From: Catajapyx aquilonaris
Lineage: Eukaryota
Direction of reading: 5' to 3'
Assembly: GCA_000934665.2 (NCBI GenBank)
Contig: KZ538100.1
Location: 62,001 to 126,000, forward strand
Length of the DNA stretch: 64,000 bases
Under the pieces are notes generated by a model that made no database searches, was not told the origin of the DNA, and worked only from the letters and a program-made list of their open reading frames with translations. The translations under genes were made by a program, and so were the position numbers. Positions 5,431 through 59,443 of this stretch are shown in pieces. Within the stretch, counting starts at the first letter, position 1, and every line of letters starts with the position of its first letter.

Positions 5431-6102
5431 GTGAAGATCTGGTTCCAGAACAGGAGAACAAAGTGGAAGAAGCAGGACAACATCAGCAACGCGGAGGCTG
5501 CCGAGCACAAGAACCAGGCCATCGGGAAGCAGCCTGGGGAGAAGGGGAAAGGCGAGGGCACCAAGGGCGGGACCGGGGGCAGCACCCCCACCGCCCCTCC
5601 GGCCTCCGCCCCGATCAGCGCCCCTGGCACCCCAGCGACCAACAACAGCAGCAGCGGGACGACCACACCCGCGTTGAACACGAACGGTGTCGGCGTCGGG
5701 ACTTCCCCGGCGCCATCCTCCGCATCTTCCTCCTCGTCTAAAAGCAGTAAAGGTGGTGGGGACGTCAGTATAAGTGTGGCAGGTGGTGGTGGTGGTGCGA
5801 CGGAGACTAAGGTGGCGAAGAAAGGGTCGCTGGCTGACCTGGTTCTTGACTCTGGTAGCGAGGACCATTCGAACGCGTCCAACATGTTCATGCAGGACGG
5901 GACAGGGTCGGAGTCGGAGCAGTCCTCCGAGGAGCCAGAGACCAGGAGTGGGACGGCCCCAGTGGACTCTAAAGGGTCGCCCCCTCACAGACAGCACCAC
6001 CACCATCCGCATCACCCCGCGCATCACCAACAGCCGCAGCACCACATGGACGGAAGCAGCAAGGACACGGAAAGTGACGCGCCCTTGTCGCCCTCGAGTT
6101 AA
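5431..6102 (+). CDS. NK7: NK7 homeobox gene, terminal coding exon (homeodomain helix 3 and C-terminal tail); upstream exons not found in the window
   Basis: Strong polypyrimidine tract and acceptor (tcttctttttttctcttccttttcctatag|GTG) at 5430. The exon reads VKIWFQNRRTKWKKQDNISNAEAAEHK. The post-homeodomain stretch DNxxNxEAAEHK matches my recollection of NK7-family proteins (NK1/slouch has KWKKQNPG instead). Phase-0 intron before VKIWF is a common homeobox intron position. GC-rich codons run to TAA at 6100-6102. Confidence 0.88.
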   Translation: MKIWFQNRRTKWKKQDNISNAEAAEHKNQAIGKQPGEKGKGEGTKGGTGGSTPTAPPASAPISAPGTPATNNSSSGTTTPALNTNGVGVGTSPAPSSASSSSSKSSKGGGDVSISVAGGGGGATETKVAKKGSLADLVLDSGSEDHSNASNMFMQDGTGSESEQSSEEPETRSGTAPVDSKGSPPHRQHHHHPHHPAHHQQPQHHMDGSSKDTESDAPLSPSS

Positions 6103-18656: not shown

Positions 18657-18663
18657 ATCAGTC
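18657..18663 (+). promoter_or_regulatory. Initiator-like element (ATCAGTC), putative ACP transcription start
   Basis: Matches the arthropod Inr consensus TCAGTY, ~40 nt upstream of the proposed first ATG (18699). Confidence 0.45.
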
Positions 18664-18698
18664 AGCGGAGAGGCACCTCATCGCACCACATCAGAGCA

Positions 18699-18709
18699 AT
18701 GGCAATGGG
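18699..18709 (+). CDS. ACP: ACP precursor, putative coding exon 1 (MAMG...)
   Basis: ATG GCA ATG GG followed by a strong donor GTAAGC at 18710. Splicing to acatcag| (18787) restores the frame into exon 2. The ATG at 18810 is an alternative start. Confidence 0.6.
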
Positions 18710-18787
18710 GTAAGCATGCACACATCACAATCTTAACATTGCACAACAATATTCCTTTCATCGCTTCCATTGTCTACTGCACATCAG

Positions 18788-18869
18788 ATCCCAGCTGAGT
18801 AACACGGGAATGGCGACCTGCTTCTTCTTCCTGATGGTTGTCCTCTCCGGATTCCTCACGTCCGCTCAG
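18788..18869 (+). CDS. ACP: ACP precursor exon 2: signal peptide plus the Gln1 codon of the mature peptide
   Basis: Encodes SQLSNTGMATCFFFLMVVLSGFLTSA-Q: hydrophobic core with small residues at -3/-1 (T-S-A). Ends at donor CAG|GTACTT (18870). Confidence 0.85.
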
Positions 18870-18937
18870 GTACTTGCTCATTGCTCTTCCTTTATACATG
18901 CTGCGGCCAAAAACTGGAGTAATTTTTTTCCTTGCAG

Positions 18938-19048
18938 ACCACCTTCTCCCGCGACTGGATTCCAGGGAAGAGGTCTCACCTGTCCGGAGAATCGTCATGC
19001 GGAGGGTTCGACCCAGAGGTTGCTTCTCAGATCCAGAACCTGGTAGAG
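18938..19048 (+). CDS. ACP: ACP precursor exon 3: mature peptide (Q)TTFSRDWIP, GKR amidation/cleavage site, start of the associated peptide
   Basis: Acceptor tttttttccttgcag| at 18937 closes a 68-bp phase-0 intron. Reads TTFSRDWIPGKRSHLSGESSCGGFDPEVASQIQNLVE, then donor GAG|GTAATG at 19049. QxTFSRDW is the ACP signature (cf. insect pQVTFSRDWNAamide, decapod pQITFSRSWVPQamide). Confidence 0.9.
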
Positions 19049-20409
19049 GTAATGTCGCGTAACTTTGATTCTCTGCAGTCTATTGCATGTCGAAAATATC
19101 TATATCCATGCTTTCTCTCCTTCACTTGCTGCGAATACACTTTTAATGATTGAAGGTTGCGTTTGCAATGAATTGCTTAAGAATATTAGATATTTTTAAA
19201 GACAATCGAATATACCATATCTATGTTACTTAAGGCTGGCCTGAATAAGTTGAGCCGTTCTGTCGCTCCCAATCAGAAGAGGTCTGTAAATTGCTCATCT
19301 GCCCGCTCTCCCTCATTTCTCAGACCACATGACGACATCCTTTCTTAGATTTCCACTGGCCTATAAGGGAAAAGTTTGGTCTTTACCTAAAGCGCTGGTT
19401 TAATGTTGCAATTTAAAAAACCGGCGAGTCACTCTGAAGTTGGGCACATAATTATGGTCAAGAGTAGACCCTCATTGCCATATTTTTCCACTCCGTTTGG
19501 CAGGTTCGTAAATTTCATAGAGCAAGAAAAGACACTCTACTGTCACGTCTACACTTGTATGTCATATTAGAGCAAGTACCAGATTTTGCATTATGAATAC
19601 CTGTATATCCATGTACGATTTATGACGCTGCAAAAAAAATCTGCATTCATCTTGCAGGTATTGTCAAGACCAATGCACGAGTATAAGAATTTCACTCCTT
19701 ACGTGATGGAGTGAATAAAATCAGAGTTCGAATTAATCGTGCCACGAATTTTTAAGTATAGAGTATCAGATTAGCTGTTATGCCATCAATTAACACATTA
19801 TTACGCTTTTCCACATAATTAATAATAGGTATACATACGTAATAATGCTGCCTCGCTTCACTGAAAGATTAATTGCACCTGAATGTAAACATAATATTAT
19901 TATTGATCGTGATACTAATTGTTTCAAGTGCATAATTCGCATGATGTGTTCATTTACATTGCTGCCATTATAACTGGTGATTCATAGGGAAAGTTATTAA
20001 CATTTAATTAATAAGGCTTATTTTGCTGTTTTTCACACTTATATCGCGCAATGTGGTACAATTGAAATACACCCTATTTAAGTATAGCGATTCTTCGCAA
20101 TGAGAGTTATTCTAAGCGGACATTGAAAGTAAGCTTATTAGTTGTTAATACCAGGCCGGAATGAATGGTCAATCCAGGCTGTCAATTACGATGCATTGGC
20201 AATTTACCATGGCCCATTGGAATCATTGTGTCATATCGTGTCGATAACATAGCTCATTTTTTCAAGCTAGTCCTTCATGTAGGAATTGAAAATAACGTGT
20301 CCAAGTAGCCATTCGAGCACACCAGTAGAGTCATGATTTGAGGAGATTGTCCTAATGGCAATGAACCAGTCTGTATGTACAATTATGTCTTTGTCACGTG
20401 TGATCACAG

Positions 20410-20622
20410 AAGGAAGAGAGCCGTCTGATAAGCTGCAAGGTGATGAAGGTGGTGAGCCTCCTTCGGTGCACTCACTACAAAGGAAAGCAACCGACGGAGG
20501 GCATCCTGATGCTTCCGTCTTCGGCGACGTCAGTGGTCGGCGGAGACGAGGATGAGCGGAATTACTTCGCAAATTCTCTCCCCAAGCACCAGCAATCCCC
20601 CTCCGATTTCAGCTCATCCTAA
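20410..20622 (+). CDS. ACP: ACP precursor, probable terminal exon 4
   Basis: Acceptor gatcacag| at 20409, phase 0. Reads KEESRLISCKVMKVVSLLRC...SSS*. The joined L-V-E-K-E-x-x-R-L-x-x-C resembles the C-terminal ExxxLxxC motif of AKH/ACP precursors. GC-rich island in AT-rich DNA. AATAAA at 20621-20626 overlaps the stop. Full model is 138 aa. Confidence 0.7.
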   Translation, partial: KEESRLISCKVMKVVSLLRCTHYKGKQPTEGILMLPSSATSVVGGDEDERNYFANSLPKHQQSPSDFSSS

Positions 20623-22529
20623 TAAAATGTACGTCGCCCACTTGACACGACGTTGCACCTATAAGATTTCAGCTGATTCTCTCAAGGATTCAGCAGGTCC
20701 GTCGTAACTCTCCTTGGCTATATTGTGGTGGTATAAGCTTTATACATTTGTTTCCCTTCGCGTATTCGACAAAATATTGTGACTTTGTGGGAACACCTGT
20801 CACCTTTTCGGACTGCAGACCCCTACAGTAGCATTGTACTCAGCAGTAAGTAAACTGTGGGGCTCTGAGTCAAAACTATTTCCATCCACCGAGTAATATC
20901 ATGTACAAATAGGGTGTAATAAAGAGATCCGAACTGTGTAAACATGTTTGTGCAGCGTAATGAGTGCAGGTGGCATGAATTGCAGGGGGAATTACCCAAC
21001 AGGCGTCGAGATGTCGCCTCTGGGAAGGGCCTGGAGCTGAACGTTGGCGTTGGTGCCAGCAGATGGCAAGGGATACCCACAGCATGTAGCTGGCTCCTCT
21101 CCTACTCCTTCTTGGAGCTGGAGTTCAAGAGTTGGTGGGGCTCCTTTTACCATTCACATGCAGGCATTCACAGACACACCTATAGGGAAGGAATTAATGT
21201 GCCTTCCAGGTGCATTCTTTAGTGCAACCGACAGCTTGTAAGTCGCCGGAGTAAACGTATACTGTCATGTGCGTCATATTATATTATTTTGTGCTGCATT
21301 GTAATTACTCATAAATCCCCAAGCGTTATATGTATATTGTATAGCCTGCAATAGTACACGAGAGCGGTACCAAAATGATTTACAAGCCTGGAGAGGTTGA
21401 CACACCCATGACTCCTGTGCATTAGGCTCCGGGAGGGTTCTGTTGATAGTGTGGGCCTATTTGCCCACCTATACATGGTCCCTGTATTTTCGGCAAAAAA
21501 TTAATAAATTATAAATAATTTTGGTGCGGCCCTCGGATCTATACCTTCCTGAAATGCGATATAAAATATTATCGGTGATTCTGACACGTGAACAAACCGA
21601 ATTGTTTCAAAAGTGACCTGATTATGGAAAATGCTGGCATTTTTTGTGCACATAACGAGGCGAAAATCAAATTATCGAGCGTTCTTCCTGGAACGAGGCA
21701 TATGACCTAAACAATAAACATTGACTGACAAGTAAATGTAATTATCGATGCTCGTTACAACTATAGTTTATCTTCCAGTGGTTGCTGTGGTAAACAGTCC
21801 ACCATCTCTGAATCCCCCCCTCTTGGACTGTAGACTTATTGGGCACCGCGCACACAGTCTACACTCTACAGCAGTTTAGTGCTGAAGTGCTGAGAGCAAA
21901 TTTTCAATCCAAATGGGCCTAGCGCTTTGTATTTAATATATTGTACGCACTTTAATTTACGTAAAATTAATAATATATCTGATATTTCTATAGCTTTTTG
22001 CACATTCTACACGATTTTGTCAGAAGCAACATAACATTCGCATAAAAGGTGGCTTGAATTTAAGTAATAACGGTGATAATATACAAGATGGTCCAAATCC
22101 AGTATATGGCTACCTACACAGTAGGCCTGTAATATACTGTAGACTCCTATTTCTTACCAAAATTACGCATCTTCGCCTGATTTTCAGTAAGTAACAATGA
22201 CTGTAAAAGGTTACAATATTAATAACCCATTGCTGCTTACTCAAAAAGAATCATTATTTTTCAAGAAGTGTTTATTTGTTCGACCACAGTGCATTTAATG
22301 TAGGCTATACGTACACTCGACGCTCTGACAATACAATATTTTTGGGTCAACGACTTATACCTTTTGCTGTTGCAAGTATTCCAGGCCTATGTCAATAATA
22401 AATTATATTGCGAGTACTACCCGGCTCACTCTTTCGCATGTTAACTCGAGCGTCACATGTTTCTGGGGCACATTTTTCACTTGCAGCCACGCATGTCCCG
22501 CGGACGGATAGTGCAACAGATAATAACAC

Positions 22530-23250
22530 TGACCAACAGTGATTTTGTTACATGAAGAATTTTAGCTGTTTCCTATATGCATTAGTATAGGCGCTGATTC
22601 CGAATATAAGGTCAGAAAGTGTCCATCACCCTCCATTTTTTGTAACCTTATTTTGCAGAAAATACTGCACACCTATCATTATCACTAATATATTGGTCAA
22701 ATATAGATTTGTTACCTGAGCAATTTCATGGCTGTTTCTTATGCATCTGGCTCTGCTCTGATTCCGAATATGAAGTCAGATTTTTCTATCAGCCTTCATT
22801 TTATTGTAACTAAACTTACTTCCTCGAACTCTGCATAACTCAATGTCACCAATATATTGGTCAGCAGTGGCTATTTTTTGCTGTCAATGTATTAGTAGGC
22901 GCCGATTTTTAATATAAAGTCCGAAAATGTCCATCGGCATTGGTTTTCTTGCAATAGACCTTACTTCCTCGAGAGTATAGGCCCACTTTGCATGTAGCTC
23001 AATATCACCAGTTTATTGGTCAACAGTGGCTTTGTTACATATTAAGGATTTCAGCTGTGTTACTTGTGCATTCACAGGCTCTCAATTTGAATATATGTAT
23101 GAAGTTAGAAAAATTCAATCAGCATCCATTTTCTTGTAACAAGCCTATATACGTAAATATCGTACCTTTTGTACTGCACATTGCTCAACAACATCCCGTG
23201 CATATATATAATATGCTTCCTATGAGGATTTCGGCTTTCCTATACTTCTA
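22530..23250. repeat. Degenerate tandem array, ~4-5 units of ~160 bp, probably transposon-internal
   Basis: Recurring motif ggtcaacagtg..ttgttac..gctgtt..gctgattccgaatat(a/g)a(a/g)gtcaga near 22535, 22696, 22859 and 23018, with a partial unit near 23221. Confidence 0.7.
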
Positions 23251-23717
23251 TCACAATAGTGGTAACATATAGATAATCCATTAATTCCGTCCTATTGGTC
23301 ATTAACTGCTCACAAATCGTCAAAGTGAATGACATTGTTACCTTAAAATACGATTACTGAAAAAACTCTGAGCGATATTAAAAATTTATATAGATATTAG
23401 AAATCGACGCAGAAAAAATAATACAGTATAGGAATAACATATTCTTGTAAAAAGAAGTTCAATTTTGTCGGTCAGTGTAATATCAGAGGAAATACGAAAG
23501 AATGTCATTGTTCATAATGATATTGGGCCGATATAATAATTCAGTTCCTATTATTGACAGCTAACCCTAAGTCCTAGCCTTCTGAGGGACTGGGCACATG
23601 ACCCATTTCCGACAATGCACTTGCACCTGTGTCCCCTCCCCCCAAAAAATCACTATCCTTACCCAATTTCCTTACTTCCCTGCACGGAGAATGACGGAAA
23701 AAGTATTTAAAAATACT

Positions 23718-23776
23718 AGAAAACTGATGGTGGTATGCCACCCCCTAAAACGACTTAGTTGTATCACGGGGTAAAA

Positions 23777-23811
<35 letters not shown>
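23718..23811 (+). mobile_element. 3' end of a retroposon (SINE/LINE-like) with (TAAA)n tail, copy 1
   Basis: agaaaactgatggtggtatgccacccc...cacggggtaaaataaataaa..., shared with the copy at 53211-53312. Confidence 0.65.
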
Positions 23812-23812
<1 letters not shown>

Positions 23813-24014
23813 GCGGTGCAGTTTAATGTCACTACGCCTTCCATATACGAGTATATGCGACTCTTATGGAGTGATTTGTAAATTTGTAAATTATGCTTGG
23901 TCTTACTGATATTGCTCCACCATAATTATGAAATGTTTAAGGATATTGCTTTGCAGATAATGGCTTTGACCTTTGAGGAAGCAAAATCTACCTCTAACGT
24001 CTAAATTGAAGAGT

Positions 24015-25083
24015 GATCTGACGGCAAGCAAAGTAACTTTTCTTACCCTCCTGGATTTTGATAATTTTTATGATTTAAATTCTGCTTGGCCTATAGTGCT
24101 GAGAAAACATCACCTCCGCTGCTAAATTCCACGTTAGCAGGGTGAAAATCCAGCCTAAAGGCGATGTTCCGTAAGCCACAACACCAGCGTTCGGTCGCCA
24201 GGCGCTCGTCCCGGCTACCCCGGTCGCGGTCGCCTTTCACCGCGTCTGTAGCTCTCTCCGGTGCCACGAAGGAGAAGGGTCATCTCGCACGCTTTGAAGT
24301 TGAAGGCGATTATAATAATGGAGAGCCAGGACAGGGAGCATACTACTACATACTGTAAGAGGCGCAAACATTCGATGCGTCTCTGTTTGATGGGGCCAAC
24401 GGTGGCGGCCATTTTGAAGAGATGCCAACGAGGTGTAAATAGGGTACAGGCAGGCCAAAGCTTCGCCATCTTTGATTGTTTTGGCGGCGGCCATGGCACT
24501 TCACGGCAAGAACACGGGCGAATTTGAATATTTTTGCCGTACTTACGGAATTAATACGTAGAAAAGTGCATTAAAGGAGCTCATACGGCAAAAAGATTCA
24601 AATTCAGCCGCCAAAACCATCAAATGTGGCAGACCTTTCGCCTGCCTGTACCCTATTTACACCTCGTTGGCCTCTCTTCAAAATGGCCGCCACCGTTGGC
24701 CCCATCAAACAGAGACAGGCGAATCGAATGTTTGCGCCTCTTATGTAGTATTGTGCCCCATGTCCTGGCTCTCCATTATTATAATCGCCTTCGACTGCAA
24801 AGCGTGCGAGATGACCCTTCTCCTTCGTGGCACCGGAGAGACGAGCTACAGACGCGGTGAAAGGCGACCGCGATCGGGGCAGCCGGGACAAGCGCCTCGC
24901 GACCGAACGCTGGTGTTGTGGCTTACGGAACATCGCCTTTAGGCTGGATTTTCACCCTGCTAACGTGGAATTTAGCAGCGGAGGTGATGTTTTCCCAACA
25001 CTACAGGCCAAGCAGAATTAAAATTATAAAAATTATCAAAATCCAGGAGGGTAAGAAAAGTTACTTTGTTTGTGAGTCACATC
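24015..25083. mobile_element. Foldback / long-TIR non-autonomous DNA element (~1.07 kb; arms ~24015-24490 and ~24607-25083)
   Basis: The two arms are near-identical reverse complements, also visible as twin ORFs 24164..24358(+) and 24604..24933(-). Spacer ~115 bp. No transposase and no clear TSD. Confidence 0.88.
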
Positions 25084-25210
25084 TGAATGGTATTTCAAGT
25101 TTTCAAGTGTGAAACCATTCCTAGTGCAGTGATACGTCTGAAGCTGAGAGCCTTTTGCAAACCTGTATTAGGGAGAACTATGATAACACTATGGATCACG
25201 ATATTATTTT

Positions 25211-25703
25211 GTCCATGAAAATTAATCGCTATTTCCATGTTCCTTATAGGTCATTCGTAAATCATAATGGCCAATCCCTTTGCCTGGGATTTGTTTTTGA
25301 CCTCGGGGCATCAGTCAAAAAACCAAATTCCTCAAAATGTAGGGGCCATTCCGAATCAAGTGGGCCGAAATGTTGCTGGGCCATCTCGGATGTTTCTGAA
25401 AAAAATCACAGCTGTACAGTGTACACACACATGCCATATCACTGCATAATTATGAAGTTTCAGCCATATTGCGCAATACCACGATGAGGGGAAAAATTGC
25501 GACATTTTGAAAATGGCTGAAAATGAGGCATTTTTTATAGATAATTTTATTCGGTTAGTGTATAAGTGGTCGAAAACCAATGAACAAATACATCAAATGA
25601 AAGGGAATCACGAGGATAACGCGCCTATGGAATGAGCGTTCCTCTAAAATGTAACCAGGAAATGTGCGTGTCATTCCATGTGTCCCATTATCAGTCACAT
25701 GTC
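25211..25703. mobile_element. Partial long-TIR element, copy 1 (centre plus right arm)
   Basis: 25312-25703 is a diverged reverse complement of 26135-26465. 25211-25322 is a diverged direct repeat of 26465-26578. Confidence 0.7.
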
Positions 25704-25893
25704 CAAGTATTTAGACCCCAACAATTACTGATGTATTTCAGTTACAACAGTCATATTTGGTGGCATAAGTTGAGACCCACACAAGGTTTATTATGTTCAG
25801 TTTGAAACCTGGTGCATAATATATGGTTCGCATAAAAATATTAGAGAATTTCTGCAGAATTACCATGTTAATTTTCAAGGAGCCAAATTATTA

Positions 25894-26129
25894 AGGGCGG
25901 TATCCACTGCTCAATACTATCAAGGGGTTTCAACCCGTTCAACCCCTTGAATCAACCCCTTGAGCGGGCTTGAACCGAATAGAGCATGGCCCTATTTGAT
26001 TCAACCCATTGAATTCAAGGGGTTAAATCACGTAGGGCCATGCTATACTCGGTTCAAGCCTGCTCAAGGGGTTGATTCAAGAGATTGAGCGGGTTGAAAG
26101 CCTTGATATTGAGCAGTGGATACCGCCCT
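25894..26129. mobile_element. PIF/Harbinger-type MITE, 236 bp, almost wholly palindromic, TTA target-site duplication
   Basis: tta-AGGGCGGTATCCACTGCTCAATA ... TATTGAGCAGTGGATACCGCCCT-tta, with the symmetry centre at ttgaattcaa (~26013). A 3-bp TTA TSD is typical of PIF/Harbinger. Confidence 0.88.
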
Positions 26130-26134
26130 TTATA

Positions 26135-26580
26135 GACATGTGACGGATAGAATGCCACACAAGTTTTTCTGGTTACATTTTAGAGGGGCACTCATTCCAT
26201 AGGCGCGTTCTCCTCGTGACCACTTCGACTAACCGAAAAAAAATTATCCGAAAAATTCATAATTTTCACTCATTTTCAAGATTTCGCAATTTTTCCATCA
26301 TCACGGTATTGCGCAATATGGATGAACCTTGATATGCAGTGCTATGGCATATGTGTGTACAGTTGTGATTTGTCTCAGCAAAATCCGAGATGGCCTAGCA
26401 ACATTTCGGCCCACTTGATTTGGAAAGACCCCTATATATTTTGAGAATTTTGCATTTTTTGACTGTCCATGGGAATTCATCGCCATTTTCAAGTTCCGTT
26501 GTTCACTATAGTAACTCATAATGATTATTTACTCGTATTTTGCTGGGATTTGCTTTTGGCCTCGGGACAGTCAAAAAATT
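26135..26580. mobile_element. Partial long-TIR element, copy 2 (left arm plus centre)
   Basis: Begins gacatgtgacgg; mirror and direct homology to 25211-25703 as described for copy 1. Confidence 0.7.
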
Positions 26581-26921
26581 GCAAAAAATGCGAAAATGCA
26601 ACAAATTTTGTTGCATGTGTAATGATTTGTTTGCACTATAAAGATTAGGTGGACCTACAGAATGATACGTCACCTTTTAAAAACTGCTGTGCAATAAGTG
26701 TGTGGCCAAAGTGAGCGGTATCCTGTAGTGTCAAAAGGTGTTAGAAAGTAGCTCGCAGAATGTGTGTGGCTCAAGATTAATAAAACAGCTGGTTCTATTA
26801 GGACGTGTTAGTACTTCTACACCTAATCGTGAAAGGGATTTCAACGGAATACAAGGAAACACACGAAATTTTGGGGAAATATATTTTTACTGTCTTTATG
26901 AGGTATTGTTTCGATTTTTCC

Positions 26922-27377
26922 CTATCCTTGTGAGGCGTGTGTTCACTATGAGGTACAGGAAAACTACCTCGTAATGACAAAATTCCTCACAAGGATAGCA
27001 ATACGCGTCCACACCTGAGCCCCATAGGCTGTGGGGGCAAGAAAAACACACATTTTCGAAGCGAGTGTAAACTGATCTAACCTAACCTAACCATACCTAA
27101 CTTACCCTACCCTACCCTAACCTACCCAAACCTAACCTAACCTACCGTAACCTAAACCTACCCTACCCTACCTATCCTAGGCTGAGAAAAATGGACTTTT
27201 CTAAAACCCTACATAACGGAATTGTGGGGACATGTCCTCACTGAATCAGTGTCACACCAGGCGTTTTTGCTGTGGGGACGCGAAGTGTCCCCACAATTTG
27301 GAGAAATAATGTCCCCAGAGGTACAGTCAAAACACCAACCTTGGTCCCCAGACCCTATGCAAGACCTGAACACACCT
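26922..27377. mobile_element. Non-autonomous element(s) with short inverted repeats, hairpins and an internal degenerate (CCTAA/CCTAC)n tract; possibly Helentron/HINE-like
   Basis: Perfect 14-bp IR ctatccttgtgagg (26922-26935) / cctcacaaggatag (26985-26998). CCTAA-like tract 27076-27180. Hairpin tgtggggac...gtccccaca (~27273-27295). The family assignment is inference. Confidence 0.45.
27076..27180. repeat. Degenerate (CCTAA/CCTAC)n pentanucleotide tract, TTAGG-like on the minus strand
   Basis: ctaacctaacctaaccatacctaacttaccctaccctaccctaacc..., seen directly. Confidence 0.9.
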
Positions 27378-30300
27378 CCTTAACATGGGGTCTGTGCGAA
27401 TGGTTGCTTCAAGACCAGGATAAAGTGGCCAAAAGTATTTGAACCCGATAGTATACATTACCACCCTGTTCCACTTGATGGATAAAGCACATTATATTCG
27501 TCCATCTGGTATTTTCAGATCAGTTTCTTGTTTTGTTGGTAAGATATTACATAATTATTTTGGCGTGCCCGATGTGAGGCTACTTCTGACATATACCACG
27601 TATATGCCTTTGGCTGTGAAATTGTTCGAACAACCTCTCCATAAATGAACCGTGTGTGATCCGATTGTTGTCAGGGTTTCTCAGAGTTATCTCCAAACAC
27701 TTCTGGACCTCAGAATTTAATAGAAACAGTAATTGACCACCCGTAAATCCGATTTTGACAATATCGGGAATGATGTTATCACACACTTGAGGCTCAGATT
27801 TACCAGACAGCATGACTTGGCCACTGAGCATGACTGGGCCGCGGGTATTGAGATCATTTACAGAAGTGCCGGTGGTCACCTATGTACACAAGATGGGCAC
27901 GCGTGATGAAAGGAGCGACGTGTGGAAATTAGTCCGTATTAAATCAAAACTTCATTAGGTGCAGGACACATGGGCTCGCCATAAATTACTCGCCTCCCTC
28001 CCTCCCCTCGCTTTTTTATGTAGATGTTTGGGGGAGAGAGTGAGGGGTGTGGGAGAGAGGAGGGTGTGATAAGGTGGGGGGTGGAAAATACGTGCACAAA
28101 TTATGAGGACTAAGGCGTGATGCGACCAGGGTTGGAGAGAGCATATACTATAAAATACCCTTCTCTCCGGGTGTCCAATTGTAGGAAACTATAAAAATGA
28201 GCCGCTTCTTCAAGTGACACGAGGCCAAGCGGTGGATGCCACCAATAAATTGGGGAAGAGGAGCGAACCGATATGTGAGGGGCAGAGAGAGTTGAGAGGA
28301 AGGCTTAGAGCGGATTAGACGTTTTGGGCGGAGGTTTTGGGCTGCGCAAGTGAAGTCCTGGGTAGTCTTCATCTTTCCTCGATTCCATTAGGCCGAGTGG
28401 ACCCAGTCGCCTACATGTCGACTCCAACTCTTCATTTAGCTGGAAGAGAAGTGAGTTTTGCGAGGCTGCGACCGCGGAGAGGAGGAGGAGGTGGAGGTGG
28501 TGGGGGGAGGGGGGGGTTCTGCTGGCGGGCACCATTCCAATATCCACCACCCTCCAACCCCACCCACCCTCTCCAAAAGGAAGTGGAAAAGCCATCCTGT
28601 TGCAGTTCATTCCCTGTTAGTAGAGGAGAGGACCTGGCAGTGCAGCAGTTACATTGCAGAAGTGCTGATTCAATGGAATCAATCAGGATCACGGGGGGGG
28701 CTGTGGGGGGGGGGGGAGGAGGAGGGATGATCAATCGTCTTTCATCAACCCCCATATCCGCCACTGGTATAACCCCCTCCACTTTTTTGGAAAGGGAGGA
28801 TAAAATGGGAAGGAGAAGGCGAGAAGGGGGGGAGAGAAGAACGACCCAGGCGGTTTCTCATGTCTCATTTTGACCCCAGTGAGACAGCTGGACAACGACC
28901 ACCATCGGCGCCTTTGGGGGATGTCCAAGATACTCAGCCTCAACTGCCATTCTTTTTCGCACACTCTTCTCCCGCCGGAAGAAGAGCACAAGAAAAGAGC
29001 TGGAGGAGGAGGAACCTTTCTCTTATAATGGCCCATCGCCACCGGAATTCAATCACTCCTCGCGCTTTGCTCTCTAAAAGTCATTTCAGGCCCCACCTTT
29101 TTCTATGTCGCTTTTGGGGTATTCTCTTAGTAATGAATTTGTACTCGACATATTCCTACTAATTTAGGGCAAAGAGTATGATTATACGGATGCACTGCAC
29201 TCTTTTCTTCGAAGAACGAGGGATTTATGCAAATTATCATATTGCAACATGTGTCAGAGGGAAATGACGTGACGGGATCGAAGGGACGAATAATATTACG
29301 CGGGATCTGTAAGATTTACTTAATTTTGCTATAGATATACGTATAATTCAGACGGTTATTAGCAATAATTGGTAGTGTATACTTGCAAGTGAAAATTGCT
29401 TCAAGACCTATACCTCATATGATAAGCACATCAGCCTATATGAGAGGGGTCTTTTACACATGTCGCGACGACGGCATGCTAAGTGAAATATCCTGCTTGT
29501 TAAGACACCCTCCCAACCGCTGAGAAAGTCTGGTCGCCCAACCGGCAGGATATGTCACGCCTTTTACAGGACGCGTTTCCATTTTTTAAGATAACAATGG
29601 CAATGTAGTTGCTATATGAGGATTGAAAATTATGAAATGAGTGCGATTCGTTTCTTCCTGAATTTAACTATTATTCTCATATTAATAGAACAAAATAATA
29701 TCATTGTGCAAAACCAATCATATTATGCACTCCGAAATATTTTAAGTGTACATAGACTCAATAATTTGAGTGGTTTCTTTTCATGCTTTGCATATAGATG
29801 AGAATTTTCACGCATTTAATTATTGCTTGTACGTTGGCAATGGAAGAGAATGAACTTGCTTTAGTGAACCCGTCACTTTTTTCCGAGTGTCTAAAATTTT
29901 CCAAATGAAACTTTCACTCCGCAAATGTTATCAATTTGGGTTCATTTAATTTTTGAAATAGTGCATTTACCGCTTGTAGGCGTAAAATCTTCGATATATT
30001 TTGAGTGATTTCAGACTTGTTTTAAACGAGTTAAAATTGGACATAATATGCTCAAACAGAATTATTTGTAGTGTGTATTGCAGCGCGCATCACCCTGGAA
30101 TGAACATTGTTCTATTTAAACATTCGAATGCACATTTTAAGTCCCCTCATAGGGAAATGTCGTGTTGTTGTTGTTGTTGTTGTTGCTGTATGTTAATTTC
30201 GCAATTTTTACAAACATTTTCTTTTCACCTCCCACCCACTTTTTTCAAAGTCTGTCACCCAGCAGCAAGGCTATATATAGACATTGGGCCAATATATCCT

Positions 30301-39300: not shown

Positions 39301-42300
39301 TCTCTCTCGGAGGCCCATCGTCATTGCACCACCACCAAACCATTGCCAAAGAGCATCGGGGGGATCATACAGGGAGAGTGCTCCTGTAGAAGATGGTAAT
39401 TATTACTACCCGAGTGATGCCATCCCTTTTCCAATAAGCTTGTTCAGCAGAAGGGGAAGTAATGGTTGCAGATTCCGTTTACGGGACGTCGAATGACCAC
39501 TTGGAACCGTTATAAACACGCCATGGAAACTGCTTGGACATGTCAACCACGGATTACTCCAGAATTAATCGCCCACCACCTACGTGTAGCAATGCCGACA
39601 CCTGCCGGACACATGAAATGAGCAAGTGTTCAGATGCCTGAATTTGCACACATTTTGTACCGAGTCACTTTTGGACAATAAATAGGTACGAACTCATTTG
39701 GCATCAGTAGTTACCAGGAGTAGTAAGTGAATGCAAATAATGCTGTTGGAGGTGAGACCCACATGTGCAATGTGCATTGTGAGAGAGGCTTGCTCCGCTG
39801 GAGAGTAAAATTTTTTTTCAGGTTCATTTGTTCAGATCCGCATTAGAGAGAGCAAGCACACACTTGAGCACATGGGGAGAGAGAGAGGGGAGGGCAGGGT
39901 TTCCAGAGAGAGGGCACCATATGCAGCGGCAGCATCCACACTCTAATTAGCATCAGAGAAATATGAAAAATGGACCTTAATCCGGTTCCTAACGCTTTGC
40001 ATTAATTGCCGCCAATTGACGAATGGATAGTTGAGAGTGTGAGCAATGGGGTGTTGGGTCGTATGGGGTTGTGCTGAAGGAGGGGGGGAAAAAAGTGCTT
40101 GCACATGATGCCGCTCGTTAGGGGGACGAAAAAAAGAGGGTGCAAAGCAAGGTATTGTTCTCCCCAAAAATAGACATAAATCGGCCTTAAAATATGTTGG
40201 ATATCGGCTGTTGATGACGGTGTTTTTTTCTCTCCACTTGGCGTAAATTGGATCAGGGAGATCATTGAAGCGCAAATGGGTGAGTGGCAGGTCAGCTGAC
40301 CTTTTGAGCCGCTTATCCCAATGTCACTGATCCCTTCAGCAGGCAGGAGGGCAGGCAGGAGGGTCCAGAGAGGAGGAATAACATGGTGGCGGTGGTGTTA
40401 GTCGGGTGCCTTCATGCTGGTGACGGCGGGTTCTGATGCTGTCAATTGGACGAAGGGTCCCCATCAGGATTGGATGAACCTCGATTGTTGCCCTCTGTCC
40501 ATCTGTCCTCTTCCTGCTGGCCCGCATTCAAATCATCCGGAGTCCCATATGGCACCTGAGCCATTGATATATTGCCCGTTTCATTTGAGCAAACACTTTT
40601 TAACGACGATTGATATGTCATATGTCATATGTGCCATGTGATTAAACATATACTCAATTTTTCTGTCTCCAGCATCAGCAGTGCAATATAAGATGCGTCG
40701 TGTACATCCCCTGGAGCGACTGCCTGTACATGGTGGTTGGCGTGAAGATGAATGGACTCGTGTCGGGGTGAAGTGAGGCACCTTGGCATCATTGTCCCTG
40801 CGCCAGGGCTCATCATGTCGGAGGCAGCACCGCCTCCGCTGATGCTGCCTGCCCTGCCCGCCTGCCCGATCAGCCCAAATTAATTAGGTGGGTGATGACG
40901 CAACTCTGGCAGACAGACGGGGGTATCACCCAGCCTGGAGGGTACTGTATATAGGCTGCAGACGCGCTCTTGTCATTTGCTATAGGTCCAAGCAATGTCA
41001 TACATGTGCAGCACACACCTTGCTTTAAGCAGTTTCTCGCATATTAATAGTTTTTAGGTTTTTCTTTTGAAAATCGAGACTTTTGGAAAACAGGTCGGAA
41101 TTTTAATTTGCGAGTCGAGAGCCTTTGTATATGTAATTTGGCTAGGAAATATTGTAATTTTGATGCGAACTTGCAACCTGCCGCATTTTTCACTCCATGT
41201 TGCAGTACAAGCACAGTAGACAAAATGAGTTTGATACACCCCCCTCCCCATATTATGCCCCCGAGGTTGGGTTTTCAGAGCTCTGCTGCTGCACCAGCCA
41301 GGCAGGCATCAGGGCAGACACGTTCTCTTATGGACTCAAGTGATTATTGCGGGCCTCTTGTTTGACTTTGTGATTGTAATAAGGGCAAGTGTAAGTGTCG
41401 CCTATCAACGTCGGCTTGGGCTCGCTAGCTCTCTCTGCTGCTGCTGCTCGGCTCTGATGCTGTGATGTCATCACATGCAGTCAATTCTCTCAGCCAGGGG
41501 GAGACCCCCTCTCCATGGCACTAATATACACTGCAGCACATATCGCCTGCATGTGTATATGGCATCGCGCACGTTAAGAGCAGGCCGGGGATATCATATA
41601 TGACACGAGCGGAGGCTAATATACAGGGCTGGATGCGAGAAAGAAAAAGTAGGCCCCAGAAGGGACTTTGCTGCTGATGATATGGGAAGGGATTTACACA
41701 CACTCAGTGGGGGGATGGACCATTATGGCCCCCCTCTCACCTGTGCTGATGTTGCGCCCAAACTATTGCAAAGATTACCTCCCATATTAATTTCCTCCGG
41801 CTGGCCCTGCATTGTTTACTCGCTCTCTGTAAATACAGTTTGCACCCTCTGCAAGTGCATAGAGAGAGTGTAGCGCTGCCTTTTAGGCCATCAACATAAT
41901 ATCATGGGCTCCTGGAAAGACACCGAATCAGTTGCAGTACAATCAGGTATATAGGCAAAGTGAGGGTGACCATCTGAATGCTGGTTAGATGGCGTTGAAA
42001 GGGGATTTCTGCTGGCAAGAGTCTGGAGGGCGTCGCGAGAAAGAAGAGGCAGTAAATCTGCGACTTCATTCCGGGGAATGCGTTTGGGAAGGCAAGCGCT
42101 TTTGAATCTGCATCCCTTCCCTCCTCATCCCAGACCACCATCCCAATCTGCCCCATTCTCCTGATGATGCCGAGACTGCTCTGAAACTAAGAGGCGCCAA
42201 CCCATCAAACCCGAGTCATTCCCGCAGAATGCAATCAGGGGAGGGGGAGGGAGGGCCCCCGTTGAATAGAGCAAGACTTGGCGCCTCTGATTAAGGGGGT

Positions 42301-50747: not shown

Positions 50748-51070
50748 TATATTTGTGTCTCCAATCTTTCCCACCACAACATGGCAGCAAAACCCTTAAA
50801 GCCTATATACTGTAGATATGACAACATAATTTTATTATGGAGTGCCGTGAAAGATTTTCGTTAAAAGTGGTTCTCAACAAGGCGACAGAAATGATGGGGC
50901 AGACAATTTATTTGACTGAGCTCTATTATATAGGGGCAGTTGTAAATGAGGGAGCTGACTTATTATTGTGTATTTTTATGCTGTGCATCTGAAAAAGGTG
51001 TTAACTTTGGGGACAGAGTGTATTGAAAATGAGCGAGTTTTGAGGGACTGGAAATAGAGCTTACCTTATA

Positions 51071-51494
51071 CAGGGTGTATCTGAACTCAGTGCCCCGACG
51101 TATATGACTGCCTTCCTAGCCACCAGAGGATTGATTTAAGTATAGGAATCATTATGTTTGGCCGCCGCATTACGGAGATAATTGGCCGCAAACATGAAGT
51201 ACAAAATATCCTGTCGGTTAGGCCACCCATCGAACCCTCCCCCAGTCAGAAGGCTCTGGAAGGTCTGGGGGCGGGACTTTGTTGGGTTGTTGCCCACAGG
51301 TGGTAAGGCCTCTTTGGCTAGTTACACCAGAAAATTCTATTTAAAAGTCAGAAGGAGCGATTAGGCAAAAATCGCTAAAGAGTGTATCTCAGTAATGAGG
51401 CTGCCCAGACATATGACTCCTATACTTAAATCGATCCTCTGGTGGCTAGGAAGGCAGTCATATACGTCGGGGCACTTAGTTCAGATACACCCTG
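51071..51494. mobile_element. Tc1/mariner-type MITE, 424 bp, ~110-bp TIRs, TA target-site duplication
   Basis: ta-CAGGGTGTATCTGAACT.AGTGCCCCGACGTATATGACTGCC ... GGCAGTCATATACGTCGGGGCACT.AGTTCAGATACACCCTG-ta. Confidence 0.92.
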
Positions 51495-53210
51495 TATAGT
51501 CTCAGTGTCAGTGTATATTATGTATAGGATTAGGTGCAAGTTATCGCGCCAACCAAATTCTAGATTTCAATGTAGCCAGGTTCCGTTACATATTGTAACT
51601 AATATTAGTTAGAAGTGCAAGTTTTTTGAAGGCAAGATTAAAGGTCTCTTTTTAAAAATAAATCTGTGGTTTTAAATAAATCACAAGCAGTTAGTTCAAG
51701 AGCAATCAATTTTATAGACCTATACTAACATCAGAAAAAAAGAAAAACAGAAACAAAATGTGCTATTTACAGAGTTTTAAATATTTGTAACCTAAAAAAT
51801 AGGTGTAGCTGACATACGGTATATATTTCAACTGTGGCATGATGAATATATTTTATGGATTTTTATATCACAGAAAAATTGCGGAATGTAATATTTGAAA
51901 TACCTTTACGAGCATGCATTTTTTCCAGTTCTTATTCCTGTGGATTGAGACTCTTCAATTGATTTTTCAGTCGACCCCCCCCCCCCCCAAACCCCATTTT
52001 ATTGGAATATTGACCAATAAAAGATGTTAGTCTACATTCCATGTGCAAAACAACTTCCTTCTATATTTTCTATTTTGTTGCAAAAGTGATGATGGGTCTC
52101 TGTTCAATAAATTTTTGAAGCACTTACAAAATTGTAATGGAAGGAGAACAAATCACACATTAGCATATATGCAGTAGTTACATGGATTCAAACTTGTTTA
52201 CATTTACCACTGACACACAACAGCAGCAACAGCAGTCTATAAGCGATATAATGTGTTCATACATTTTGTAAACAACGTGTTTTAATTTAATATATGATAC
52301 CTATACGTATATGCACTGCTTTAAAAAATTCAGATTCAACCTGTTCGATGGCGATTATGAAATATGCAGGGGGGCTTTCAAATTTGTCACCACTTGCCCT
52401 ATGATGTCATAAAGGAGCCTGTTTTGAAGTTCAGGGACCAGGACTGTGCAGTATACACAATCGCATACTGTAATAGAGCGAGGCAAAGTTCCTCAGAATT
52501 TTGGAAATATCAGTTATATCAGCTTGGCCTCCTGGTTCAATATAGGAATGGAGCAGCGGCCCACCAAAAATGGTATAATTTCGATCGCGATTTCCCTCAA
52601 AAGTTGAGACGCCTACTCAGTTTGTTCATGAAGGAAGCGCCCCTTGAATAGATTCGGTTGAGTTCAGCTGGTAGGCAATATACATTCAGGTTTAACACTC
52701 AATTTTGCATAATAATTTTATTAAAACAGTGTGTGTTTGGAGCTACATAGCCTGCTGTGTGTAATTCCAGGGGATTCAACACGGTGAAACCGTACGCACT
52801 GCTGCAGCGGCGAATAAACTCCGTTCTTGTGACGAATTTCATCACTGAACAGATTTTCATTATGCTACTTTTAATTAATTTTATTACACACTGAAGACTT
52901 TCCATCGGTACTATACCAGAGAAAATTCCGGTAGAGTATATGGTCCGTTTAAACACATGACCATTATATCACAACGATGTAATTTATTGCGCAAGACAGA
53001 TTTTAGGTCTTCAAAAAGGTCCAAGAAGAGTTATTGACCACCCTGTACTATAGAGCCTGTCATATAGGCCTACTCTACAAAGTGAACATCTGAACCATAA
53101 CAACAAAAGTTCAAATATAAATGCGAAGTCAGAAATGATATTTACCCCATATATAGGCCTACTATTTATATATAACAAGTCCTTCCACCGGAGATTGAAG
53201 TTAATAAATC

Positions 53211-54062: not shown

Positions 54063-54365
54063 TCGTCGTCACGTGTGGAGAGAGAGTGTGATATGCGGCA
54101 GAAGCAGAGGCGGGGGCGCCGGTAGCCAGCCTGTGCCTTGCCTGCCACGACGGCCGCCATCAAGGAAGCCCCCGTGGCGGCGGACGACTCCGTGTCGCAG
54201 GGCTCGTCCTTCAGCGGCGGCGGAGGCGACGGAAGCAGCGCCGAGTCCCCCGGGCTGTCCTCCTCCGCCTCGGCCACCTCGGGCACGGTGGCCAGCACCT
54301 CCTACAGCACCACCACGGTCACCTCCTTCGCCGCGGCAGCCGCAGCCGCAGCCGCAGCCGCCGGC

Positions 54366-54680
54366 ATGCTCGAGTTCACCCCTCCACCGACCTCCTCCTC
54401 CGGCGGCGGATCGGCGGCTGTCAGCGCCGCGGCCGCAGCTGCAGCGGCGGCGGCTGCGGCTGCTGGAGGAGGAGGAGGAGGAGGAGGCGGGCAGCCGGGC
54501 CCTGCCTCCAGCCCCATGCTCTCCTTCCTCAACCTCAACATGGACCCGGCCTCCAGGAACAGTGCTTTCGTGCTCGGAAGCCCTCCTCTGGCCGCCCTGC
54601 ACACCATGACCGAGATGAAGTCAGCCGTCTTGGGAGCAGCGGCCGCAGCACAGCACCACCACTACGCCGGACAATCTACA
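54366..54680 (+). CDS. Nkx6: Nkx6/HGTX homeobox gene, first coding exon (start uncertain: ATG 54366, ATG 54516, or a non-AUG start near 54147-54159)
   Basis: Contains [20 protein letters not shown], matching the Nkx6 N-terminal motif (vertebrate Nkx6.1 [20 protein letters not shown]). Poly-Ala and poly-Gly tracts. Phase-0 donor ACA|GTTAGT at 54681, where base composition turns AT-rich. Confidence 0.88.
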
Positions 54681-55420
54681 GTTAGTATAATAGTCCTCTT
54701 TCTTACCACTCTCATAGTCCACTGTGCTGTGCATACGTCACACGCAGCAGGTAACAACATCGCAGACAAAGTTGGCCTAGTCTCACTCTTAAAAAAACTA
54801 CAGTCTTGCACCAAACCGCGGCAGTAAACCAAGTGCATTTTGTTGTTGGAAAATCAGTGCTTGCAAATTGGGGAAATTATGGCCTCGAATAAGCGAATCA
54901 AGTTTTGCGTCATGAATTGTTTCTCGGTGTCACGTGTTTAGTGGGATTGCTGTGCTCTTCTTTGTCGCGAGGAGCTAAATTAAGAGACAAAAGTTAAGCT
55001 AAGAATTGGGAAATAGCGTCATATATTGTTAACACGACGGTTTATGTGAAGGCCTAGAATTAATTCGAGGCTTAGATTTTTTTCGAGAGAGGAGGCTGCT
55101 ATTATACTATTGAACTTGATATGTAAAAAAAAAAAAATCTAATGCACAATATTTGCCAGTATATAGTTCTGATCAGCCTGAAGCAATTATGCCGCATCTG
55201 AAAATATTCATTGGCATTTTATTATTGCTCCATCACTCATCTCTCCGTCTCTGTGTGGCGTCATATCAAGGCCTAGCTGGAATTTTGTATTCAGTGCAGG
55301 CCATGGACTGTATAGGGAGCATGCATGGGATCTGAGATATCTGAGATCTGCAATATTACCTTACTATATGTCTACAAATTACTAAATAATTTCAAATTGA
55401 CAGGAGCATACCCACCACAG

Positions 55421-55421
<1 letters not shown>

Positions 55422-55497
<76 letters not shown>

Positions 55498-55521
55498 GTA
55501 GTAGTAGTAGTAGTAGTAGTA
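55422..55521. repeat. Compound (ATT)n(AGT)n microsatellite in Nkx6 intron 1
   Basis: Seen directly. Confidence 0.96.
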
Positions 55522-55886
55522 ACTTAGTAGTAACGAAAGGACAGTTGCATTATACACATTATACATAGTTTAAAAAAAATCTGGATATGAATAACGAGAA
55601 AAACAGTTGCGACAATAAGTTGTTGTATAATTATAGACCTATGCGGATCATGGAGTAAGATGTAAAAAAAATTCCCTTAGTCATTGAGTAATGAATTTAG
55701 AATTTGACGCTGAACAATAAAAGGGTGAGCACATATGTTCAAGGTGAGGTAGTATATGTGAGTGTTTTTGAAAATGAAATGGAGCCTGTTACATTTTTAT
55801 TAGGCTACTCCACGCAATGCAAGTCTCTGACAGTCATGAAGACCTAAATTGCTGCGGGGCCTGCATCATGTCATGTTTCTAAACTA

Positions 55887-55938
55887 CAGCAGGGAATATG
55901 CACGAATTACATGTGTAATTTGCGCATATTCCCTGCTG
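55887..55938. repeat. 52-bp near-perfect palindrome flanked by TA (miniature MITE-like)
   Basis: ta-CAGCAGGGAATATGCACGAATTACA tg TGTAATTTGCGCATATTCCCTGCTG-ta. Confidence 0.8.
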
Positions 55939-57217
55939 TATAGTTTACACATGTCATGTACTTGTATATGGCTTCTTCCTCTATGAGCAGTTGTATAGTC
56001 GTGGAAATATCAAAGAACTTTACTAGCTGAATGTATGTTAATGTTACAGTGTAGTTATACGTCGCAGGAATAATGGATGTGCCGTTTGTTAGTGGCGATA
56101 TTTGTAACGGTAACTCATATGAACAAAAGAATAAGCAACCATACAAAATTGATCTGACAAAATGAGTGACAGGCTGTACAAGTATAATCAAGTATAGTAC
56201 ATCAGAAACACACGATTAGGTCTAGCTGCTTATATTTTTATACGTAGACCTGAAGCTCTGCAGCTGTAGTATTTCAAGGGAAATTAAGGCAGGAAGAGCC
56301 CTTGTACAATTATAGGCCTGCTCTGATTACTTCCAGCAGCATGAATCAATTTAAATTCCACATTTGCATTGATTTGTGTGCATCCTTTTTGCCGACGGCA
56401 AAAGCAAGAAAGCAATGAAATAGGCCTAATCCCACTCTGCACTGTAGGCTTTATCTTGTCGCAACTGAGACGCATAGTTGGGGCATAAAGTGCATCTCAA
56501 CAAGTCAATCACAACATTATCGATAGAACCCTGACAGTATATAGTGCACATTATTGCCTTGCAAGAACAACCAGTCAAAGTTGAAACCTTATTATGCTGG
56601 AGCATTTAGAGCCCTTCAGTGTGGTCACCATGAGTAACTTAACCACTGGGTATTACCACAACATTCCCGAGGAACCTCGGGTTACTATATAGCTAGTGGT
56701 AAACTATATATGCCAAATTTAGGGGGCCTAAAGAATAAGTTAAGGAAAACAACACCAATTTTTAAAAAACCGGCCAGTTATTCCGCTATGGAATTTACAA
56801 AAAATAATCTCAATGCTGCAGTGGCTCAACAAGTCATTAATTCAGCATTTTCTTCTCTTTTGTACCCCGCACCTAAATTAGCCCCTTTGTGACTCCCTGG
56901 TTTTGGCGGTCAACAATCGAAATTATTCGTGGTAATTGTTGCTTTCAAGACGAGCCTTAAACAAGTTCAGAACAAGCCAGATGGAGTGCAGGTGTCAAGG
57001 AAAACCTGAGGCCTAATAAAGGCCTATTTTCTGAGAACATGCAATAACAAGGGCAAACTTCTGGCGGCACAACTTTTGGTCAGCCTATATTTGCTGCGAT
57101 TGATTGTAATATTTATTTTTAAGCGTGCATGTGATGTAAGTGTACGAGTAGCAGGAGGCATGTAATAATCTGAATCAGGGCGGCGCTTGTTCCTTCCCGT
57201 TCGGTGCACACCACCAG

Positions 57218-57608
57218 CCGTCGTCAAAGGCGGCGGCGGCGGCGGCGGCTGCAGCGGCGGCGGCTGCGTCCCTGTCGGGCATGTCCCCCCATCACCAGCA
57301 GCACCACCCGCCGTCACTCTCCGGCGGTTCCTCCTCGCCCATCAGCGCGGCCAACCCGCACGGGATAGACCACATCCTGTCCCGGCCCCTGCCCCACGCC
57401 CTGGCCGGGGCAGTGGCCGCAGGGGGAGGCCTGCCCCGGGCATTCAACGTCACCTCTGCCGCCGCCGCTGGGATGTACTTCAACCCTGCAGCATCCCTCG
57501 CCAAGCACCAGACCTCCTTGGCAGACTTCGCCTCCAGGCCAACCCTCTACTGGCCTGGCATTCAGGGGCTCATGGGGAACCCCATGTGGAGGGACAGGCT
57601 CACTGGAA
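57218..57608 (+). CDS. Nkx6: Nkx6/HGTX second coding exon (eh1/TN motif and YWPG motif); homeobox exons presumably downstream of the window
   Basis: Acceptor ...ccaccag| at 57217, in phase 0 with exon 1. Encodes NPHGIDHILSRP (Nkx6 eh1, cf. TPHGINDILSRP) and LYWPGIQGLMGNPMWRDRL (cf. YWPGVMQSPPWRDARL). Phase-1 donor A|GTTAGT at 57609. Confidence 0.9.
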
Positions 57609-59443
57609 GTTAGTACCACACTCCTTCAACTCTTTTTGTTGTTGTTTGAAATCAGACAAAAACACACAATAATGAAGGCAGTGCTTCAGTTTCCTAATGT
57701 ATATAAGTTATACAGGATACTGACTAGTATAGTTTGGCAACACTGCTTCCCCCCCAACTTGGACGTAGTACGATAGGCCACTACCAGTTGGCGCATAGGC
57801 ACACTCCTGCCACTCTCAGCGTGGAAGTAGTGTACTACAAGCACGTTGGTGATGAGTCACTCTCCAGCAGGGTGCTGTTCTCGGATACATCGAAGTGGGT
57901 CCCACCCTCTCTGACCGATATATGTCCTCTAATTGTTGAACGGGGAAAGCTAGGCGATGAGTCAACACGGACGGCATATACGCAGACGAAGATAAGAAGT
58001 GTGATTGGCCGCACAACGACCCAAAGACAGCTCCGTGTGAACCCTGGCATCTGGGGGACATTAGGCCGTATAAATTGACACACCCGGTGACAGTCATCTA
58101 GGCATGTATAGGGGGGGAGGGGTGCTGGCCTTATTCGGTCTTAAACTGGTCACCTTAAAATATTGAAATTGGTCGTTGGGAGGGGCTCTTAAAAGCACTC
58201 TGCGGTTACGCCTGGGGCCAGGGAATATTGTCGCCCGCTTCCAAACGCCTGCCGAGTCGCCATCAATGGCGACTGTTATATTTCCAGCCTGATCATATGT
58301 CTGATGGGCTGCTGCTGCTGCTGGACTCTCTCTCTCTCTCTCCCCTTTTGGCCTTTTCCCGCCCTCCCTTTCGAAATGAGTCAGCAGGAATAATATATTG
58401 TTGATCGGCCGGGATTGTTGGGACCATTTGCTGGTTGAAACTGTTGCGACTTGTGACATGGCGAACAGAAGCTCTCCATCTGTTTTTAGGTGGGACAATG
58501 CGCAATTTAGTGCATCGAATAATGCTGTGAAATGGCATATTTTTCTCTGTAATTTTATTGGGCTCTCTAATTTATTTTGAGCTATTTCCTTGGCTTCAAA
58601 AAATTGCACATTTGAAATATACTTTTTAAAACAATTCATCCAAACAGTCAGTTCCTGCTAAACTCATTGAGACTTTGCTCCTATAAATGAGGGGCTAGAT
58701 TTTCCGAAGTAGCCTAAATTGAATTACTGAGTTGGTTGAAAAGTATAAATATGACCCGGAAACGCTTGGTGCCATTCAAAGAAATAATAATTGCCGCTGA
58801 GAAACAACTATGTCATTATTTACTGTATATATAGAAAGTGAGATATTTTTAAGGAATATGGCCCATTGCAGATGTACTTATAACTCGAATAAATTTCGAT
58901 TACAAAACAATATGCAGTATTTTGCTAAGTGGCGGAAACCTACTTGGGATTGTTTTCTTGCCTGATAGATCCGAATATGAATTCATTAAAAAAATTTCGA
59001 CTCGTGTCTTTCTAAGATGTAAATAATATTTATTTAGAAACTCATTTCACATGGACAGTGTCAGAGGTGGTTCCTGTTTGCCAAAGTTTTACACGGCATA
59101 GTACTTCTAAAAATACTTCTGATGTTATTATATTATGAGAGCACTGCTAGGCCCGCATTAGCACTATAGACCTCATATCGCCTGAAATCTCAGCGACATT
59201 TTATACCTGAAAATATTTAGTCGCATTAATATTTCTTCATGTATACCTTTCTGTATGTATGCGTCACTGGCAGCCGAGCAATATTTTCGACAGCGTTTTC
59301 ATTAGCCTTTCAAGAAAAGGAAATGATGACTGTTATTAACCGACTCGGAACCCACGAATCGCTTTATCAATCCGCCTTTTAAATATGAAGTGAGCGAGCA
59401 TGTATCTGCCCAACCCATTCCATCCCTGAAAAGATTTATCATC

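Follow-up and report, generated by a model that had tools for sequence, protein, structure and literature searches.

A probable ACP prohormone gene located between two NK homeobox genes in Catajapyx aquilonaris

Structure of the gene and its precursor

The window analyzed here is a stretch of 64,000 nucleotides (nt) from Catajapyx aquilonaris (assembly GCA_000934665.2, contig KZ538100.1, positions 62,001 to 126,000 of the forward strand). It contains a four-exon gene on the plus strand that very probably encodes the prohormone of an arthropod ACP, the adipokinetic hormone (AKH)/corazonin-related peptide. Splicing in silico gave a continuous frame of 417 nt, corresponding to 138 amino acids (aa) and a stop codon, and reproduced the four-exon join at GT-AG sites that had been proposed in an initial annotation of this DNA. 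The features of the gene are the following (positions are those of the window):

18657..18662, plus strand: initiator (Inr)-like candidate ATCAGT, 42 nt 5' of the first ATG; a consensus match only, from a motif scan
18699..18709, plus strand: coding exon 1, with the ATG start, ending in phase 2
18710..18787, plus strand: intron 1, 78 nt, GT-AG, phase 2
18788..18869, plus strand: exon 2, encoding the predicted signal peptide; its last codon (18867-18869) is Gln1 of the mature peptide
18870..18937, plus strand: intron 2, 68 nt, phase 0, GT-AG, separating the codons of mature residues 1 and 2
18938..19048, plus strand: exon 3, 111 nt, encoding peptide residues 2-10 (18938-18964) and the start of the associated peptide including Cys52
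18965-18973, plus strand: Gly amide donor and Lys-Arg cleavage site, within exon 3
19049..20409, plus strand: intron 3, 1361 nt, GT-AG, phase 0, eight residues ahead of Cys77
20410..20622, plus strand: exon 4, encoding the remaining associated peptide (Cys77, Cys88) and the stop codon
20621..20626, plus strand: AATAAA, overlapping the two tandem stop codons of exon 4
20918-20923, plus strand: second AATAAA, 3' of exon 4, a candidate signal

The motif scan found no TATA box at the usual distance from the Inr-like ATCAGT. Besides the start at 18699, in-frame ATGs are present at 18612, 18705 and 18810. The segment 18612-18698 (plus strand) is in frame and without a stop, and would add 29 residues if transcription began further upstream. 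Retention of intron 2 in the mRNA would shift the frame, with loss of the peptide.

Reading frame, splice sites and processing signals can all be seen in the sequence itself. A hydrophobic core spans approximately precursor residues 14-27, with a hydropathy peak of 2.72 at residue 18, and Thr and Ala occupy positions -3 and -1 relative to Gln31, where the cleavage site was placed by the -3/-1 rule. A Gln-initiated decapeptide follows, then Gly-Lys-Arg and a Cys-bearing associated peptide, so that the joined exons contain the precursor layout described in the initial annotation. Signal cleavage, convertase cleavage, amidation and pyroglutamate formation constitute the established prohormone pathway, from which we infer processing to a mature ACP decapeptide in this animal. 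The spliced mRNA would be translated in neurons and the signal peptide removed after Ala30; a prohormone convertase would then cleave at Lys-Arg, the Gly would be converted to the C-terminal amide and Gln1 to pyroglutamate. Processing in this way would yield pQTTFSRDWIP-amide, a decapeptide with [M+H]+ 1232.6. Its predicted target is a dedicated ACP receptor, a G protein-coupled receptor resembling those for gonadotropin-releasing hormone (GnRH).

Motif and profile support

The peptide pattern Q..FS..W.{0,2}G[KR]R had a single match across all six frames of the window and none in 200 locally shuffled windows, over which two looser patterns gave 3 and 2 matches in total. A back-translated DNA pattern likewise matched once (18941-18972), and none of 100 shuffles contained it even at two mismatches. 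Exon 3 with the preceding codon reached 30.1 bits (E 6.8e-7) against the AKH family profile PF06377, and exon 3 alone 27.7 bits (cut-off 22.9 bits). When exons 2 and 4 were searched singly against Pfam, no family was matched, and exon 3 had no match to the pro-corazonin profile PF17308 at E thresholds of 10 and 1.

HMMER search of protein cluster representatives returned two matches, P0004 and P0003. The latter is a repetitive, unrelated protein and was rejected as an ACP relative. P0004 (KAG8307718.1, Homalodisca vitripennis) is a leafhopper 'hypothetical protein' of 311 aa in which three copies of the ACP peptide exon are strung together, either through local triplication of the exon or gene or through an error of assembly. 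Word-seeded protein searches with exon 3 and its read-through, and with the ACP part of P0004, gave no candidate. The atlas searches yielded no usable match for exon 3, and the ACP part of P0004 scored only < 0.8.

Comparison with a second ACP gene

When metagenome contigs were scanned by pattern, 12 loci were obtained. One of them, L006, was kept as an arthropod ACP gene (41.8 bits against Pfam PF06377), and the other 11 were rejected as chance matches on their translations.

L006:2319-3513, plus strand: ACP gene, complete, four exons, 104 aa by model; arthropod DNA in a metagenome contig

Both genes have four coding exons with intron phases 2, 0 and 0. In each, a tiny first coding exon (5 nt in L006) is followed by a phase-2 intron, a phase-0 intron lies directly after Gln1, exon 3 measures 111 nt, and the third, phase-0 intron is located eight residues before a conserved Cys. 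All three introns thus agree in position and phase, which supports the exon model from an independent locus. The pattern used in the scan covered nothing beyond peptide residues 3-8 and GKR, so that the scan itself could not have imposed this agreement. The intron lengths differ, being 262, 503 and 115 nt in L006 compared with 78, 68 and 1361 nt here, and L006 differs further in having Val2, three Cys in the associated peptide and a shorter tail. A full-length comparison of the two precursors scored 73, a value reached by none of 2000 shuffles, but this test is partly circular, L006 having been found through the peptide motif.

The initial annotation had pointed to a 68-nt intron after the first residue of the peptide. 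It is present, and the 503-nt intron of L006 occupies the same place. Because L006 shares the introns, their phases and the 111-nt exon 3, we read the split peptide as a layout common to ACP genes and not as an oddity of this one; the shared structure was tested against a single ACP gene. A shared intron inside the mature peptide would be helpful for annotation, if unsurprising. The Drosophila Akh gene also has an intron after Gln1. Weaker indications point the same way. In the leafhopper model P0004, copies two and three of the peptide exon start at residue 2, without the Gln. Two partial ACP transcripts in the supplement of PMC7179676 (compared here in 2 of its 85 parts) start exactly at residue 2, and three ACP transcripts from the same source diverge just before the eighth residue ahead of the last Cys. 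Our own reading of these parts suggests that the divergences fit intron retention.

The comparison with L006 also bears on where the model begins and ends. With the first 12 residues of the last L006 exon as reference, the acceptor at 20410 ranked first among the 1217 stop-free phase-0 acceptors in 19091-54000 (score 19, next 15). A Cys-spacing filter was passed by 5 of 250 acceptors in 19091-30000, with the full pattern at 20410 only. Because the associated peptides align non-significantly with each other, the tail in exon 4 rests on this anchored acceptor test together with the stop and AATAAA signals. The same hormone could be encoded with other model ends, a variant compatible with the ACP assignment: translation would start at 18612 or 18810, or exon 4 would end early, at an internal donor, and be spliced to an additional exon. 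The additional in-frame ATGs permit this, the one at 18810 giving a signal peptide of 19 residues; phase-0 donor-like sites occur at 20440, 20449 and 20452, and the tail is longer than in insects (PMC7179676). We nevertheless consider such ends unlikely, since L006 likewise has a tiny first coding exon and a phase-2 intron, the residues past those donors resemble by eye the stretch behind the last Cys of the insect ACPs compared, and exon 4 is closed by the tandem stops and AATAAA.

Identity of the encoded peptide

The decapeptide carries Gln1, Thr3, Phe4, Ser5, Arg6, Asp7 and Trp8. According to Li et al. (2016, PMC5024129), Arg-Asp at positions 6-7 is present in ACPs and absent from AKHs (Table 1 legend), and ACP is restricted to arthropods. 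Because Arg6-Asp7 is present, the peptide was classed as ACP and not AKH, in agreement with the use of QxTFSRDW as an ACP mark in the initial annotation. In AKHs, unlike in this peptide, Arg6-Asp7 is missing, residue 2 is aliphatic or aromatic and the C-terminus is W-, WG- or WGX-amide. With its Thr2, WIP-amide end and Arg6-Asp7, the peptide falls outside the 'true AKH' rules as given in the same paper. The precursor layout and the PF06377 family are common to this gene and to the precursors of insect AKH and crustacean red pigment-concentrating hormone (RPCH), and a signal peptide - ACP - KR layout was also found in the polyneopteran ACPs compared (PMC7179676). At the Aedes ACP receptor the amide, Phe4, Trp8, Thr3, pGlu1 and a length of 10 were reported as critical (PMC6838013), and all of these are present or encoded here.

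The gene might instead be a divergent one of the AKH/RPCH type, whose product, an 'AKH-like' WXP-amide decapeptide, acts on the AKH receptor. PF06377 spans AKH as well as ACP (L006 and P0004 match it too), no middle Cys like that of the insect ACPs compared is present in the associated peptide, and Li et al. (2016, PMC5024129) recognize an 'AKH-like' class into which a WXP-amide end fits. Such an identity is nonetheless highly improbable in view of Arg6-Asp7, of the poor tolerance of AKH receptors for charged ligands (PMC6838013), and of the agreement of three of three intron positions with the ACP gene L006.

Departures from the usual ACP form

For hexapod and remipede ACP precursors the mature peptide is given as pQVTFSRDWNA-amide, proposed as ancestral for Hexapoda (PMC7179676). 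Like them, the present precursor has a signal peptide, here a predicted one, running directly into a Gln-initiated decapeptide with Thr3-Phe4-Ser5-Arg6-Asp7-Trp8, followed by GKR and a Cys-bearing associated peptide; it is unlike them in Thr2, in Ile-Pro at positions 9-10, in the middle Cys and in length. Several of these points weigh against the assignment to ACP. Residue 2 is Val or Ile in the ACPs compared, and replacement of Val2 by Ala made the ligand ~70-fold weaker at the Aedes receptor, and Ile2 ~14-fold weaker (PMC6838013). Most insect ACPs in the parts of the PMC7179676 supplement compared have a middle Cys in the precursor that is missing here. The precursor has 138 aa, compared with 85-109 aa reported for Polyneoptera, and its exon 4 tail exceeds that of insect ACP precursors by ~30 residues. 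Furthermore, a free local alignment of the associated peptide with that of L006 scored 28, which was reached by 367 of 2000 shuffles.

We regard Val or Ile at residue 2 as typical and not as defining, because the Ala2 peptide retains activity, although ~70-fold lower. The Thr codon is ACC, one base from an Ile codon, so that Thr2 is possibly an assembly error; it may also be an allele. In the Polyneoptera supplement (PMC7179676), 'QTTFS' occurred 0 times, compared with 49 'QVTFSRDW' and 5 'QITFS', and a literature search with three words from this peptide found no paper with any of them. The text part of the PMC4770511 supplement contained no ACP sequences, although its other files may include an ACP with Thr2. 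Thr2 appears to be new among ACPs within the literature searched, and the gene would add one more ACP whose peptide sequence is absent from that literature. The Thr2 ligand would represent a natural variant for the study of ligand-receptor co-evolution. Variation is known from other hexapods, as the ACPs of springtails differ at five positions (PMC4770511).

The departures could also mark a decaying or silent gene, a relaxed copy of ACP in a lineage where this signalling system is being lost. Repeated losses of ACP are on record, and beetle ACPs vary (PMC6585902); Thr2, the absent middle Cys and the long tail all deviate from the usual form. However, the frame is open over four exons, the six splice dinucleotides, GKR and the receptor-critical residues are intact, and the length of exon 3 is kept exactly, and we therefore hold decay to be very unlikely. 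Judged by its sequence, the ACP gene is real and intact-looking, of ordinary four-exon build, and a member of a known family.

Detectability

The initial annotation had described the gene as hidden and easily missed. Short exons can indeed defeat gene finders, as the P0004 model illustrates; a plain tblastn search with P0004, however, finds exon 3 in the window (E 2.9e-4). It had also been held that the split by intron 2 conceals the peptide. The split is present, but intron 2 ends in CAG, a Gln codon, so that the unspliced genomic frame already reads the whole peptide and GKR. The gene is less hidden than first claimed.

Likely role

A selective ACP receptor was described in Aedes (PMC5794978), and ACP is mainly neural (PMC9387463). 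In locusts ACP promotes the use of lipid by muscle in long flight (PMC8324298), and a crab study addresses ovarian development (PMC11672810). By analogy with locusts, the likeliest role of the peptide here would be in the neuroendocrine control of energy (lipid) use, which we put forward tentatively, at somewhat less than even odds.

Position between NK7-like and NK6/HGTX genes

Two homeobox genes were recognized in the window by tblastn:

5431..6102, plus strand: last exon (end of the homeodomain) of an NK-class homeobox gene; homeodomain positions 45-57, below the Pfam cut-off
54126..57613, plus strand: NK6/HGTX, two exons of the N-terminal part, matched over 54516-54629 and 57347-57610

The first is presumably NK7, a label that we base on a sequence motif. 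The text supplements of PMC13088399 did not contain this motif. The sole protein-search match of the NK6/HGTX exons was Nkx-6.1 of a stick insect (E 6.5e-13), and no NK6 homeodomain exon was found within the 64-kb window. Both the hormone and the stick-insect match indicate an arthropod host. The NK7-like, ACP and NK6/HGTX genes all lie on the plus strand, the two homeobox genes ~48 kb apart, and ACP is the only gene recognized between them. In 6100-54100, none of the 150 longest among 388 stop-to-stop frames (>= 55 aa) reached the Pfam cut-off, a scan that would miss genes with short exons such as ACP. Weak Pfam matches at 40584-40883 and 44339-44761 were below the cut-off and were rejected. 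An Rfam search of the window gave no match.

NK7 followed by NK6 has been proposed as an ancestral tandem (PMC13088399), and the two genes stand in this order in an onychophoran, a millipede, Tribolium and a spider (PMC13088399; PMC8767184), the same pair as here. The distance in Danaus is ~59 kb (PMC8767184), compared with ~48 kb in the present window. The main text of PMC13088399 contains 'neuropeptide' and 'adipokinetic' 0 times and mentions no neuropeptide gene between NK7 and NK6. Studies on the synteny of the GnRH family name other neighbours (PMC3969558; bioRxiv 10.1101/2023.03.06.531269), and PMC3969558 contains neither 'Nkx' nor 'HGTX'; PMC9977156 contributed nothing further. A literature search for ACP or AKH linked to NK6 or NK7 found nothing at the level of titles and abstract starts. 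A possible lead comes from Anopheles, in which we take AGAP002429 to be shade, and assume that shade lies beside HGTX in Drosophila. Anopheles ACP is AGAP002430 (PMC9387463; PMC8667434 supplement); AGAP002429, numbered next to it, is an ecdysone-pathway monooxygenase (PMC6315087), and AGAP002431 is given only as 'uncharacterized protein' (PMC8667434 supplement).

The position between NK7-like and NK6 appears to be new in the literature searched. Together with the changed hormone residue (Thr2), it is the sole unusual point of the ACP gene, and it is the lead of wider reach. It is possible, although rather doubtful, that the location of ACP inside the NK7-NK6 pair is an old conserved arrangement and not a recent chance event, with ACP, a hormone gene of the GnRH family, embedded in the regulatory landscape that belongs to a pair of neural homeobox genes. 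If this were true and the same order were present in other arthropods, the ACP/AKH locus would be tied to the NK cluster, and the link might extend to the linkage group carrying the vertebrate GNRH genes. Such an arrangement would further provide a synteny marker for finding ACP genes or declaring them lost, and would lead one to expect enhancers in common or a control of ACP neurons by NK6.

Repeats in the window

A near-perfect palindromic element of ~1.05 kb is located at 24025-25072, with arms that are 93-96% complementary and a centre of 118 nt; it is probably a foldback or miniature inverted-repeat transposable element (MITE)-like transposon. An inverted repeat at 25334-26440 has 85-nt arms lying 937 nt apart around an 89+89-nt hairpin (25925-26102), and another at 51067-51498 has 114-nt arms 204 nt apart. 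A short sequence with TAAA repeats at its end, resembling a retroposon tail, occurs in two copies 29 kb apart, at 23762-23811 and 53258-53307.

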